Source of the DNA: a virus
Lineage: Duplodnaviria; Heunggongvirae; Uroviricota; Caudoviricetes
DNA: 19,641 nt
Reading direction: 5' to 3' (one strand)
Virus record (IMG/VR): IMGVR_UViG_2671181085_000003
Part shown: positions 16,007 to 19,641 of the stretch, in pieces
Layout: each line of letters begins with the position of its first letter
Numbering within the stretch: position 1 is the stretch's first letter
The notes under the pieces: model-generated
The model's input: only the letters and a program-made list of their open reading frames with translations
Databases searched by the model: none
What the model was told of the DNA's origin: nothing
Translations under genes and position numbers: made by a program

Positions 16007-17074
16007 ATGAGTCAACATCAATATTATCCACAGCTGAAATGGAAGCCTGCTGAATATGAATCTCTGATGCTTTTAGATCAAACTACGCTCTCTGGTTTTA
16101 CTCCGATCATTACCATTCCAGACATAGACTGGGATTATGAAAACGAATGCTACAAGAAGAGTTTGAGTTCTTACTTATCTGACTTCGGTATTAACCTTGC
16201 GGCATCCTGGAAAGCCAATCGTCCTGTTTTGCTGGATGTTAAATATTTAGATAAACATGGTTCGAGCCGCCATCATCCTCTAGATATGTGTATCCAAGAT
16301 GCTAGAGTAAATGGTAAGGAAATTATCCCTGTTGTTTCTCCCACATATTCAACAAACTATATACATGCTGTTCAACGCAACTTAATCAATGGGCTCGCTA
16401 TATCTATCACCCCCCAGACATGGCACCAATTCACAAGTCTGGTTAACCACTTAAATATTCATCCTAGTTTAATTGATGTAATCATTGATTTTGGAGATAT
16501 TCAAAACGCAACTGATAGTTTAAAACAACAAGCATTAAGCATGGTCAACACATTATCAGGCCAAGCTCCGTGGAGAAACTTGATTTTATCTTCAACCGCA
16601 TACCCGGCATCACAGGCAGGGATACCGCAACATCAAGTTCATCATATTCCGCGCCATGAATACGATCTTTGGATGTACGTAGTACAGAATTTTAGCAATG
16701 GAAGAACGCCAAGTTTTAGTGATTATCCCACCGCTAGCTCTACCATTACGAGCGTAGACCCACGCTTCATGTCTCAGTATGTCTCAGTGAGATATTCGAA
16801 CGATACCTCATGGATCTTTGTAAAAGGTACCGCAGTTAAAGGAAATGGATGGGGCCAAACTAAAAACTTATGTACTACCCTTGTTAGTTCGCCAGAGTAT
16901 CAAGTCTTTGGCTCCAAATTTAGTTGGGGGGATGATTACATTTACCAAAGATCATTAGGCGCTAACAAATCTGGCGGCTCTAAAGAATGGCGTAAAGTTG
17001 CACATACGCACCATATTACGTTAGTCGTGAGACAGCTTTATTGGTTGGCGCAGACTCAGCCTGCCAAGCCTTAA
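16007..17074 (+). CDS. Hypothetical protein, 355 aa, no recognisable motif (accessory island gene 1)
   Basis: ATG preceded by AAGGAG with about 5-nt spacing; about 38% GC in a sample versus GC-rich flanks; opposite strand to all phage late genes. Confidence 0.7.
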   Translation: MSQHQYYPQLKWKPAEYESLMLLDQTTLSGFTPIITIPDIDWDYENECYKKSLSSYLSDFGINLAASWKANRPVLLDVKYLDKHGSSRHHPLDMCIQDARVNGKEIIPVVSPTYSTNYIHAVQRNLINGLAISITPQTWHQFTSLVNHLNIHPSLIDVIIDFGDIQNATDSLKQQALSMVNTLSGQAPWRNLILSSTAYPASQAGIPQHQVHHIPRHEYDLWMYVVQNFSNGRTPSFSDYPTASSTITSVDPRFMSQYVSVRYSNDTSWIFVKGTAVKGNGWGQTKNLCTTLVSSPEYQVFGSKFSWGDDYIYQRSLGANKSGGSKEWRKVAHTHHITLVVRQLYWLAQTQPAKP

Positions 17075-17636
17075 CTTTCCAGCCTACGCGTTTCTTTAAG
17101 GCTGTTCTGACTTCAAGCCTGAGATTCGCCATTGGAATATTTTCCGCAATAATATTCCATAACTCAAATCGGGGCTTGCTTTTGATTCCTTTGGAATAGC
17201 CCCATCGTTCAAGTACGTCGATACATTCATCTTTCCAAAGCAATTGAGCGAGCATCAATGTGTCATGGTTTCGATTAAGCTTTTCTCCACGCATGTGCTT
17301 TATAAGAATGGCGCCTTTTGACCCAACAGAAACCGTTTTAACGCCCCACCAACCTGGGATTAACTTTAATGCTCCCTCAAGATGTTTCTCAGCTACGACA
17401 AGAGTAACCTTGTCCATTACAGAAGAATAATGCTTGATTTGAAGAGGCAAACGCTCCAAAGAGTCATATTCACTTTTGAGCTCGTACCCGTGTATAACAC
17501 CATTTATTACAGCAATGTCTGCTCTACTGGCGCCAAGGGATATGGAAAATTCATCGACCACAAGGCAGTCTGGATCTAAATGCGATTCTTTCAAAAGCTT
17601 ATGATGCACCGCGAACCTAACATCTTGATCTTTCAT
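17016..17636 (-). CDS. Hypothetical protein, 206 aa, predicted PD-(D/E)xK-fold nuclease-like (accessory island gene 2)
   Basis: ATG preceded by AAGGAG with 5-nt spacing; N-terminal region reads CLVVDEFSISLGASRADIAVINGVIHGYELKSE, a hydrophobic-D ... E-x-K arrangement typical of PD-(D/E)xK nucleases. AT-rich. Confidence 0.7.
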   Translation of the reverse strand: MKDQDVRFAVHHKLLKESHLDPDCLVVDEFSISLGASRADIAVINGVIHGYELKSEYDSLERLPLQIKHYSSVMDKVTLVVAEKHLEGALKLIPGWWGVKTVSVGSKGAILIKHMRGEKLNRNHDTLMLAQLLWKDECIDVLERWGYSKGIKSKPRFELWNIIAENIPMANLRLEVRTALKKRVGWKVKAWQAESAPTNKAVSRLT

Positions 17637-18052: not shown

Positions 18053-18490
18053 TTATTTTAAGCACTGCGTCCTGATGTACTCCTGCAGGTAGTTGACCTG
18101 CGCGGTTATCTTGTCGATTCCACTTCGGAGACGGTAATAATTGAGTTCAGCATCTGCTGTAAGTCCTGGGCTTTCTCCATCGCCCATGCTGCTGGCTCCG
18201 GTCGTTGACTTTGCACAGGTGGCGGCGACTTGCAGGCGCTTACGCCCAGCAGAAACATCAGCACGGAGACTTTCGATAGTCGCGTTAGCATCAGCAAGCT
18301 CCTTTGTGTATCTGGCGTCAAGTTCTGCTACATCACGTTGACGCTTCTGCATGTCAGCGATGATGTACCTGGCTTTATCGCGCTGTTCTTTATAGGTAAT
18401 GGCGTTATCACGGTAATGATTAACAGCCCATGACAGGCAGACGATGATGCAAATAACCAGAGCGGAGATAATCGCGGCTACTCTTCTCAC
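18053..18490 (-). CDS. Rz: Spanin inner-membrane subunit Rz (i-spanin)
   Basis: Strong similarity to my recollection of lambda Rz ([46 protein letters not shown]). Probable GTG start at 18490 overlapping the R stop (GTGA); the ORF-track start at 18505 is TTG. Confidence 0.85.
18106..18291 (-). CDS. Rz1: Spanin outer-membrane lipoprotein subunit Rz1 (o-spanin), embedded in Rz in another frame
   Basis: ATG at 18291 preceded by AAGGAG; signal peptide with lipobox ([20 protein letters not shown]) followed by a Pro-rich segment ([13 protein letters not shown]); wholly inside Rz. Confidence 0.75.
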
Positions 18491-19020
18491 TGATCTATCC
18501 CCCAACAGGCTAATGCGCTTTCCTGGTCACGACGAATAACCTGTCCGTAGCAGTTATTTGAACGTGTGCGGCAATCACGCCCACCGTCCTTAATCCACCA
18601 GCGAATCGACTCACAGGCACCTTTACGATCACCGGCATTAAGCCGCTTATAAAACGTCGACGGGAAACACTTACCCGGGCCAATGTTGTAAGGACAGAAT
18701 GACGCAATACCCGCTTTCTGGGGTTCAGTCAGTGGCACTTTGATGTTTTTCGCCACCCATGCCAGCGCCTTATCACGCTCAATGGCGTTAACCCGGTCGC
18801 ATTTCCCCTTCGACAGCTTCATGCCAGGAATAACAGGCTTGCCATCCACCATGATGGCACCTCGGCAGATGGTCCAGATACCCGCACCATCACGGTATGC
18901 CGTGGTGTGGTTGCCTTCCTTTTCATCCAGAAACTGGTCGAGGATTTCAGGCGCAGAAGCACCTGCGGCAATCAGCGCCAGAACGGCAGCCGATAAACCA
19001 TAGCGGAGTTTCCTGCTCAT
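18487..19020 (-). CDS. R: SAR endolysin (T4-lysozyme-like GH24 fold, phage 21 R-type)
   Basis: N-terminal weakly hydrophobic Gly/Ala-rich signal-anchor-release segment ([16 protein letters not shown]); catalytic E-x8-D-x5-T spacing ([16 protein letters not shown]); resembles my recollection of R21. Confidence 0.85.
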
Positions 19021-19024
19021 CAGC

Positions 19025-19240
19025 TTACTCTCCCCGTGCCGCCTTACGCCGGTCCTCTCTGATTTTGAAATACAGGTTCGTCAGGTACGTCAGCAGACCA
19101 AACAGCAGACTCCCCAGCACGCCTATTGCCGCCCACTGAGACGGGGAAACCCTGTCCAGCAACTGCAGGAACCAGTAGCCCGTTCCCACCGCTGACGTGG
19201 TGTATGACACACCTGTTGTGATTTTTTCCATCTGGTACAT
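19025..19240 (-). CDS. S: Pinholin (phage 21 S-type), dual-start MYQM
   Basis: [15 protein letters not shown]...[51 protein letters not shown] closely matches my recollection of S21; two Met codons three codons apart; GGGAG Shine-Dalgarno. The ORF-track extension to 19333 is rejected. Confidence 0.85.
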
Positions 19241-19349
19241 ACCCCGTCTCCCGCAATCCGGAAGCTCACAACATGAAAAAGGCCGCCAGTGCTCCACTGA
19301 CAGCCTCGTGTAGTTACTCTGAGTGCCCAACAATTCCCTGTCAAACGTG

Positions 19350-19379
19350 TTGACATTAAGAATCGCTTTTGTGTAGAAA
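19350..19379 (+). promoter_or_regulatory. Promoter-like element A (TTGACA-TTAAGAAT)
   Basis: Consensus -35 TTGACA at 19350-19355 with a weak -10-like TAGAAA about 18 nt downstream; the spacer shares (T/A)TAAGAAT with element B. Confidence 0.3.
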
Positions 19380-19423
19380 AATTATGGCATGCATAACAAT
19401 AAAACCTCACAGCCGTACTATTT

Positions 19424-19474
19424 CCACCAGAAGCATGACGCATTTCTCCCTGTGCTTACTGGTGGATTTTTTTT
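19424..19474 (+). terminator. Rho-independent terminator, plus-strand sense
   Basis: Imperfect 12-bp stem CCACCAGAAGCA / TGCTT(A)CTGGTGG followed by a T8 run (19467-19474). Confidence 0.55.
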
Positions 19475-19499
19475 GCCCCGCAAATACCGCTGACACATA

Positions 19500-19530
19500 T
19501 TGACAATAAGAATATTTTTCATTTAAAAAT
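19500..19530 (+). promoter_or_regulatory. Promoter-like element B (TTGACA-ATAAGAAT)
   Basis: Consensus -35 TTGACA at 19500-19505 with an A/T-rich -10-like TAAAAA(T) 18-19 nt downstream; the spacer motif is conserved with element A. Confidence 0.3.
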
Positions 19531-19575
19531 ATTCATGTACAAAAATGTTTCTCTGGAGTGTCCATAGAGCTCACC

Positions 19576-19608
19576 CGCCAGTCCATTCCGGTAACTGGCG
19601 GCTTTTTT
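19576..19608 (+). terminator. Rho-independent terminator, plus-strand sense
   Basis: Stem CGCCAGT / ACTGGCG with an 11-nt loop, followed by a T6 run (19603-19608); no A-run upstream, so it is unidirectional. Confidence 0.65.
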
Positions 19609-19641
19609 ATCATGCCGCAGTGTCTGTGCTGTTCACTTCCA

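Follow-up and report, generated by a model that had tools for sequence, protein, structure and literature searches.

Predicted small RNA genes in the nanS-p/holin spacer

The 19,641-nt stretch of DNA analysed here (IMG/VR record IMGVR_UViG_2671181085_000003; hereafter the window) is a lambdoid prophage of Shiga toxin (Stx)-phage-like type with its late genes on the minus strand. In the middle part of the late operon, two promoter-terminator units were found on the plus strand of the intercistronic spacer that separates the esterase gene nanS-p from the holin gene. They are read as two independent trans-acting small RNA (sRNA) genes, the first of which (unit 1) is a predicted anti-GcvB sponge, and a probability of about 0.6 is attached to this reading. 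Unit 1 is most likely a trans-acting anti-sRNA directed at GcvB, which in enterobacteria is the main post-transcriptional regulator of the uptake of amino acids and peptides, and unit 2 probably encodes an Hfq-dependent trans-acting sRNA too.

According to the proposed mechanism, both units would be driven by sigma-70 promoters, constitutively or in the lysogen, and would yield trans-acting, Hfq-binding sRNAs. Unit 1 would have been derived from the opposite strand of a gcvB fragment (nt 33-93), and its RNA would base-pair, starting at the 5' end, along the entire G/U-rich R1 seed of GcvB. The pairing would titrate, block or destabilise GcvB and relieve the repression of amino-acid and peptide transporters, as described for AgvB, a prophage anti-sRNA that antagonises GcvB (PMC4104026). 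If this is true, unit 1 is a second, sequence-unrelated prophage antagonist of GcvB, carried by non-O157 Stx-producing Escherichia coli (STEC), and phages have targeted GcvB more than once. It would also be a clear case of a sponge that originated by capture of the antisense strand of its target's own gene.

Promoter and terminator elements

The promoter-like element of unit 1 (19350-19379, plus strand) consists of a -35 box TTGACA (19350-19355), an 18-nt spacer and a -10-like hexamer TAGAAA (19374-19379). That of unit 2 (19500-19529, plus strand) has the same layout, with TTGACA at 19500-19505, an 18-nt spacer and TAAAAA at 19524-19529. The sequences downstream of TTGACA are TTAAGAAT (site 19350) and ATAAGAAT (site 19500). 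The sigma-70 consensus is TTGACA at -35 and TATAAT at -10, with a spacing of about 17 bp; measured against it, both -35 boxes are perfect, the spacers are 18 nt long, and TAGAAA and TAAAAA each agree at four of six positions. The composite pattern TTGACA-N17-18-TARAAA, which was drawn up after the sites had been seen, gave two matches only in the 19.6 kb on both strands (19350 and 19500) and none in 200 dinucleotide shuffles. TTGACA by itself was not enriched in the window (8 occurrences versus 10.5 expected).

Each promoter-like site is followed, about 45 nt on, by a strong hairpin and a U-tract. The intrinsic terminator of unit 1 (19423-19474, plus strand) has a 14-bp stem and a 15-nt loop (19423-19466) with U8 at 19467-19474; its folding energy is -19.7 kcal/mol (z -4.75), and none of 200 shuffles was equally stable. 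The terminator of unit 2 (19575-19608, plus strand) has its stem at 19575-19601 and U6 at 19603-19608, adjoins the esterase stop codon, and folds with -15.3 kcal/mol (z -3.07). In both units the hairpin is G+C-rich and the U-tract comes directly after it on the transcribed strand. T-runs follow the two hairpins on the plus strand only, the minus-strand flanks being AAATAGTA and GTGAGCTC, and the elements are therefore polar.

These promoter-like pairs and terminators were all found where the initial annotation of the window had placed them, and its proposal of two small plus-strand units, about 70-90 nt long and running antisense to the late operon, is supported as a prediction. The predicted sRNA of unit 1 (19385-19474, plus strand) is about 89 nt long, with the 5' end placed by analogy with the prophage sRNA PasA and the 3' end in the U8 tract; that of unit 2 (19535-19608, plus strand) is about 74 nt long, with a 5' end likewise presumed. 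The first TTGACA also forms the right half of a near-palindrome, TGTCAA-ACGTG-TTGACA (19339-19355), for which a role as operator had been suggested. Its left half varies in close relatives (TGTAAA, TATAAA, TATCAACGGTA) and TTGACA is invariant; the suggestion was dropped and the palindrome was judged incidental.

A small-protein reading of the units was considered and rejected. Open reading frames (ORFs) of 26-44 aa lacked a conserved start or ran through the terminators, and none fits either unit; the 44- and 34-aa ORFs of unit 1 cross its terminator, and their start codons are lost in variants.

Complementarity and homology of unit 1 to gcvB

Unit 1 is rare: of 5426 complete E. coli genomes, 47 contain it, in none of which it is annotated, and it was absent from the phage collection. 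Its body matched its own variants only. TTGACA and AGAAAA were invariant in seven such variants, as were the stem arms of the terminator; the loop was variable.

The 5' region of unit 1 contains CAUAACAAUAAAAC, one base off CACAACA, the motif by which Tree et al. identified AgvB as an anti-GcvB RNA (PMC4104026). As GcvB reference the K-12 gene was used, which is at least 99% identical in 5390 of the 5426 E. coli genomes. The 5' segment of unit 1 at 19384-19416 (plus strand; AUGGCAUGCAUAACAAUAAAACCUCACAGCCGU) forms 29 gapless pairs over 33 positions (25 Watson-Crick and four G-U) with GcvB nt 61-93, which hold the R1 seed, with ACAAUAAAACCUCA facing R1 in the predicted pairing. This score was the highest in the window on either strand and was reached by none of 5000 shuffles (maximum 28). 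The duplex predicted between the 5' segment and GcvB nt 59-91 is bulge-free, with an energy of -38.0 kcal/mol (z -4.4 to -4.9); none of 300 dinucleotide shuffles was equally stable. The minimum free energy structure of the full-length cofold contains the same helix, with a ddG (difference in folding free energy) of -26.7 kcal/mol versus -11.1 ± 3.1 kcal/mol for shuffles (0/200). Among 18 core sRNAs, GcvB was the sole strong partner of unit 1.

The pairing register is held in the variants of unit 1, with 30/33 pairs in L089, 29/33 in L090/91 and 26/33 in L017/L088 (L numbers denote loci of the survey described below). Five substitutions separate the window from L089 within the paired stretch; two positions stay paired through wobble, two substitutions make pairs and one breaks a pair.

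Read on the minus strand, 19384-19444 is homologous to gcvB nt 33-93, with a weaker extension to 19360 (gcvB nt 106); the alignment reads AATGCG(TCA)TG(C)TTCTGGTGGA..TACGGCTGTGAGGTTTTATTGTTATGCATGCCAT. The local alignment score was 38, versus 18.3 ± 2.7 for dinucleotide shuffles (0/1000). Five unit-1 variants scored 30-43 against gcvB, and the gcvB characters retained differ by variant. When 12 cassettes were compared with 18 sRNAs (216 comparisons), unit 1 with gcvB was the sole outlier (z 8.0; next 3.4). In the partner search with the 18 core sRNAs, z did not exceed about 3.4 for PasA, EcOnc51/52, PasC and the Min27, L024, L029, L080 and L017-middle units. The homologous segment begins at the RNA 5' end and extends to the terminator's 5' arm and loop; the -35 box, the 3' arm and the U-tract lie outside it. 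No similarity of unit 1 to gcvB nt 1-40 or 95-206 was found, and an exact 15-mer scan of genome contigs for an R1-like core gave chance matches only, with a best local score of 48, of which 30 came from the 15-mer.

The gcvB-like sequence is sense on the late strand, where Q-modified polymerase would transcribe it, and the functional copy might be this one: a GcvB-like fragment (nt 33-93, with an R1-like G/U-rich seed) carried in the late mRNA and mimicking GcvB during lytic growth. Only a slim chance is given to this. The minus strand has neither a promoter nor an Hfq-type terminator, the -35/-10 elements and U-tract all being on the plus strand; gcvB nt 1-40 and 95-206 are without counterpart; and Rfam GcvB (RF00022) gave no match at E ≤ 10 on either strand of 19200-19641. 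The substitutions, moreover, keep pairing to GcvB (through wobble), not identity with it. The anti-GcvB reading of the plus-strand RNA is preferred. In a more specific form of it, put forward tentatively, unit 1 would be an inverted gcvB fragment that acquired a cassette promoter and terminator and acts as a long-antisense anti-GcvB RNA. The spacer of Stx-like phages would then hold an array of one to three units whose sRNA or anti-sRNA bodies are exchanged while promoter and terminator modules are conserved, and capture of a host sRNA gene's antisense strand would be one way for sponges to evolve in phages.

Further Rfam searches gave no matches at gathering score on the whole window, and chance-level matches only at E ≤ 10 on 19200-19641 (RybB-like, E 2.6; SpF03, E 2.2).

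Comparison with AgvB and SroC

AgvB (EcOnc01) resembles unit 1 in being a short sRNA of prophage origin whose 5' end is unstructured, rich in CA and complementary to GcvB R1, with a terminator after it; complementarity of the 5' region to R1 was found in unit 1 as well. AUAACAA occurs in both, and both lie in the late/moron region and are transcribed (in unit 1, by prediction) against the late operon. They differ in position and size, AgvB being 60 nt long in a moron-esterase slot and unit 1 about 89 nt long in an esterase-holin slot. AgvB has a 12-nt exact core, unit 1 pairs at 29/33 and has homology over about 60 nt, and unit 1 contains CAUAACA, not the CACAACA consensus. Rfam AgvB/AsxR (RF02702/RF02703; conserved 42-nt 3' region) gave no match at gathering score or at E ≤ 10.

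AgvB of Sakai Sp10 was used as a benchmark. It was found through the CACAACA motif and its terminator, and its ends are approximate. Its duplex with GcvB had an energy of -26.2 kcal/mol, its cofold ddG was -16.2 kcal/mol and its antisense-homology z was 2.0. By the same computations, unit 1 is predicted to pair with GcvB R1 more strongly than this validated sponge. The AgvB1 copy so located (L093, Sakai Sp10, reverse complement of about 18-80) lies about 150 nt from the coordinates in table S2 of Tree 2014 on NC_002695.2; unlike AgvB1, EcOnc51 and EcOnc52 matched the Tree 2014 coordinates exactly.

SroC, the sponge derived from the gltIJKL mRNA, is also a base-pairing antagonist of GcvB, as predicted for unit 1. 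SroC is described as a processed mRNA fragment of the core genome (PMC4474525); unit 1 differs in being a stand-alone prophage gene, apparently from the antisense strand of gcvB itself.

The spacer as a known sRNA locus

PasA of the E2348/69 prophage PP2 lies between esterase and holin genes on the opposite strand ('> < >'; PMC8550237, table S6). It has a major form of 85 nt and a minor, read-through form of 236 nt, is stabilised by Hfq and ranks 12 by number of RIL-seq (RNA interaction by ligation and sequencing) partners; its homologues in enterohaemorrhagic E. coli are EcOnc51 and EcOnc52 (PMC8550237). A preprint by Zhu, Shabalina and Storz (2026) places both PasA and PasC between esterase and holin genes and states that pasA copies are not tandem, an array not being described. 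The window units lie in the corresponding place, between the esterase and the holin-lysozyme genes, on the opposite strand.

In E2348/69 PP2 and Sakai Sp12 two tandem units are present as in the window; every unit has TTGACA-N18-(C/G)A(G/A)AAA as well as a terminator, and the terminator of the second unit adjoins the esterase stop codon, again as in the window. The PasA 5' end in RNA-seq lies 6 nt past the CAGAAA of TTGACA-N18-CAGAAA. In Sakai Sp4, where the first unit was lost through insertion of IS629 and the second unit's own TTGACA promoter is intact, the EcOnc52 peak of Hfq-CRAC (cross-linking and analysis of cDNA) spans the esterase-proximal unit alone. By the PasA and EcOnc52 data, both array positions are therefore supported experimentally as Hfq-bound RNAs. 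The antisense-unit reading of the initial annotation is backed by these RNAs, which have the same orientation in the homologous slot of E2348/69 and Sakai.

PasA, which is EcOnc51 in Sakai Sp12, shares with unit 1 the slot, the antisense orientation, the TTGACA-N18-(C/T)AGAAA geometry, a length of about 85-90 nt, an intrinsic terminator with a long U-tract and the first place of two tandem units. The transcribed sequences are unrelated (z 0.6-0.7), and the Hfq dependence of PasA is experimental, the window units being known here from sequence alone. EcOnc52 of Sakai Sp4 and the second unit of the PasA locus ('pasA.E2348C_0688.IGR', the 236-nt read-through form) resemble unit 2 in an esterase-proximal position, a TTGACA promoter of their own, a terminator adjoining the esterase stop and similarity of the promoter and first transcribed bases (AAAAATA..TC..TACAAA.AT). 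They differ in body and terminator loop (z 1.5), the 3' half of unit 2 being of 933W type. PasA and PasC are marked by a 3' stem-loop with poly-U together with Hfq-dependent stability; of these, a stem-loop is seen in both window units, with U8 in unit 1 and U6 in unit 2. The PasA seed GCCAGCACCU at the 5' arm of the terminator is absent from both; in its place unit 2 has GCCAGUCCAU, of which GCCAG alone is shared, and unit 1 has CCACCAGAAG. Position, orientation and architecture make the window units alleles of the PasA/EcOnc51-EcOnc52 locus; their sequences place them outside the PasA and PasC families. PasC itself looks like the 5' half of PasA fused to the terminator of the second unit.

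Two other attempts at placing the units were set aside. Nothing useful came of a MAFFT alignment of three sequences that included the PasA and PasC loci, and manual reading and the family-wide survey were used instead. The sRNA svsR was ruled out as the RNA in question, svsR lying at the 3' end of cI.

Family survey and cassette array

For the survey, 80 IMG/VR loci were fetched by means of the esterase C-terminus and reference phages were added, giving 87 loci in total. At least one promoter-body-terminator cassette was found beside the esterase stop in 81 of them; several of the other six come from contigs that are cut short. Between one and three cassettes occupy the slot. Spacers of about 381 nt (the window, L008, L010, L012 and L081) and of about 450 nt (PasA type) contain two, and spacers of 497-508 nt (L014, L017-L019 and L088) contain three, namely units resembling unit 1 and unit 2 of the window, the latter with TTGATA, and one of 933W type. 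One cassette is found in spacers of about 690-734 nt (933W, Min27 and BP-4795), together with late-strand ORFs DUF1378/DUF826. The window looks like a deletion derivative in which, as in PasC, the body of the middle cassette was joined to the esterase-proximal terminator.

The cassette is composed of a promoter TTGACA-N18-TA(G/A)AAA, a 5' body that is about 40 nt long and for the most part unstructured, and a U-rich stretch with an intrinsic terminator. A U-rich stretch followed by an intrinsic terminator is the usual Hfq-binding module. In every family, the -35, the -10, the stem arms and the U-tract show little or no variation, and the 5' flank and loops are variable. This distribution bears on the view that the units are non-functional debris, with terminators that end esterase/moron transcription or are mere scars, a fortuitous TTGACA and a decaying piece of gcvB. 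In favour of it, the slot is mosaic, with insertion sequence (IS) insertions and deletions, and the -10 elements are imperfect. The view is nevertheless considered improbable, given that the composite promoter occurs twice where none is expected, that TTGACA, -10, stem arms and U-tract are invariant while loops and 5' flanks vary, that the terminators work only on the strand opposite the esterase gene, that homologous units were detected as Hfq-bound RNAs, and that the complementarity to GcvB is kept across variants.

The antisense orientation is kept in every cassette type. This speaks for a rival view in which the RNAs, or their transcription, act in cis on the nanS-p-S spacer of the late mRNA (through RNase III cleavage or transcriptional interference) and so adjust how much holin is made and when lysis occurs. 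Also in its favour, each unit is complementary to the late transcript over its full length, late transcription runs towards both promoters, and the 3' end of the esterase gene is among the RIL-seq partners of PasA. A cis function of this kind is regarded as unlikely. The cassette bodies are exchangeable and unrelated across prophages with near-identical holin leaders, a pattern more in keeping with targets in trans than with a shared function in cis. Neither the holin ribosome-binding site nor any late-strand ORF is overlapped by the units, the partners of PasA (about 41) are mostly trans, and the sequence of unit 1 is accounted for by gcvB, not by the late mRNA. These points favour trans-acting sRNAs.

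The PasA locus is thus a modular array of one to three cassettes, and nearly all Stx phages hold an unnamed, unannotated cassette adjacent to nanS-p. The PasA and PasC families were defined by blastn (Pearl Mizrahi 2021; Zhu 2026), and BLAST-based censuses of Pas sRNAs would miss these alleles. The literature searched yielded neither a name nor expression data for the 933W-type unit, and no description of either type of cassette or of an antagonist of GcvB at this position.

Unit 2

By alignment, unit 2 is a mosaic member of the esterase-proximal cassette family that most Stx phages carry. Across promoter, body and terminator it shares about 77% identity with the units of BP-4795 and further Stx phages, and its local-alignment z against the Min27, L024 and L017-middle units was 14.6-22.9. 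The Stx-phage esterase-proximal cassette (933W, Min27, BP-4795 and most IMG/VR relatives) has the position and strand of unit 2; 933W-type phages differ in that the DUF1378 and DUF826 ORFs occupy the spacer instead of unit 1. Nowhere in the family alignment (A2) is conservation higher than in the promoter of unit 2, and the core stem of its terminator, CCGCCAG/CTGGCGG, is invariant in the family. Unit 2 carries the whole family signature, namely the promoter TTGACAAT(A/G)AGAA..TTTTCATT(T)A(A/G)AAA, the body motif UCCAU(A/U/G)G, the terminator CCGCCAG...CTGGCGG and a U-tract at the esterase stop.

RNAalifold on the unit-2 family returned the invariant 6-bp stem only, with no covariation. Inspection by eye showed the eighth pair of the stem to be C-G in most members, U-A in the window and U-G in L011. 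A match of the unit-2 terminator to the GcvB terminator (z -4.0) was judged to be a hairpin-hairpin artefact.

Evidence against the proposed interpretation

The following observations weigh against reading the units as sRNA genes and unit 1 as a sponge. A generic promoter/terminator scan of the window called neither the promoter nor the terminator of either unit; it missed them because both -10 hexamers are without T at position 6 and both loops are longer than 8 nt. The absence of T at position 6 is itself a departure from a good -10 element, and the U-tract of unit 2 has six U's only. The 933W-type unit of Sakai Sp5 has no listed Hfq-CRAC peak. The transcribed bodies gave no significant similarity to PasA, PasC or EcOnc52 (local-alignment z ≤ 2.5); against PasA and PasC, z was 0.6-1.5 for unit 1 and 2.2-2.5 for unit 2, the latter resting on the 3' arm of the terminator and the T-run only. 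The experimental support therefore transfers by position and architecture only. The placing of the 5' ends by analogy with PasA is soft, because mature PasA may be cut from a longer transcript (Zhu 2026 preprint).

As regards GcvB, it was picked as candidate after the CA-rich motif had been noticed. In an energy-only scan of the window, two GC-rich coding sites paired with R1 as strongly as unit 1 (-39 kcal/mol), and energy alone is therefore not specific. The L017/L088 variant, with its 26/33 pairs, is weaker (duplex z -1.3). For unit 2, the search among the 18 core sRNAs found no partner and no complementarity of its 5' region to the seed of any of them.

Genomic setting and late-strand structures

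Leftward of the spacer lie the class II holin gene (19025-19240, minus strand) and the lysozyme gene (18487-19020, minus strand); the SASA-family carbohydrate esterase gene nanS-p (minus strand) has its stop codon at 19610-19612 and extends past the right edge of the window. A 642-bp stretch with identical sequence is present in several non-O157 STEC chromosomes, among them L001, in which the antiterminator gene Q lies about 8.6-8.7 kb to the right. The interval between Q and the esterase gene in L001 contains a methyltransferase gene, two tRNA genes and other morons. Directly downstream of Q, at about 18150-18316 of L001 on the late strand, a pR'-like TTGCAA-N17-TATATT is followed about 75 nt beyond by a tR'-like hairpin and T-run (AAACCCGTGACCGAGCGGGTTTTT). 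The true late leader is this Q-adjacent pair, which can be compared with the StxS/6S RNA unit. The spacer of the two units is that between esterase and holin, and the description of it as the place where a Q-dependent late leader should run is not supported.

The same comparison bears on a further proposal made in the initial annotation, that the units are pR'/tR'-type late promoter-terminator units left in inverted orientation by recombination. The likeness is one of superficial layout only, a promoter with a terminator nearby. No similarity was found to the region downstream of Q, to other parts of the window or to the 9 kb to the right, blastn-short of the units against the rest of the window and these 9 kb giving matches of 12 nt or less only. 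The pR'/tR'-like pair is present in its normal place beside Q, and the units have the same orientation in all relatives. This origin is regarded as highly improbable.

Five full-length copies of STnc100 (Rfam, 119-172 bits) are present on the late strand of L001 (11803-12782 and 14542-14754), four of which form a tandem series immediately upstream of the esterase gene; sRNA genes are therefore densely packed throughout the late/moron region of that prophage.

Apart from the two units, a late-strand hairpin with a U-tract lies at 19274-19307 (minus strand), about 35 nt upstream of the holin start. Its sequence differs widely among prophages and its structure is kept. Over 12 sequence types, 93% of cells were paired and four pairs showed compensatory changes, compared with 23-73% paired in slid controls. 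The hairpin is probably an intrinsic terminator that bars non-antiterminated (moron/esterase) transcription from the lysis genes. Just upstream of the holin start, at 19257-19273 (minus strand), a nearly invariant small stem-loop (CUUCCGGAUUGCGGGAG) overlaps a GGGAG Shine-Dalgarno-like sequence; we take it to resemble the sdi-type structures responsible for dual starts in lambdoid holins.

Between the terminase and lysis genes, at about 16007-17636 of the window, a moron-like pair of ORFs was noted. The plus-strand ORF (355 aa) corresponds to a 'beta family protein' in the matching genome, where it is split by an IS3 element, and the minus-strand ORF (206 aa) is of the 'sce7726 family'. The pair could be an accessory or defence module.

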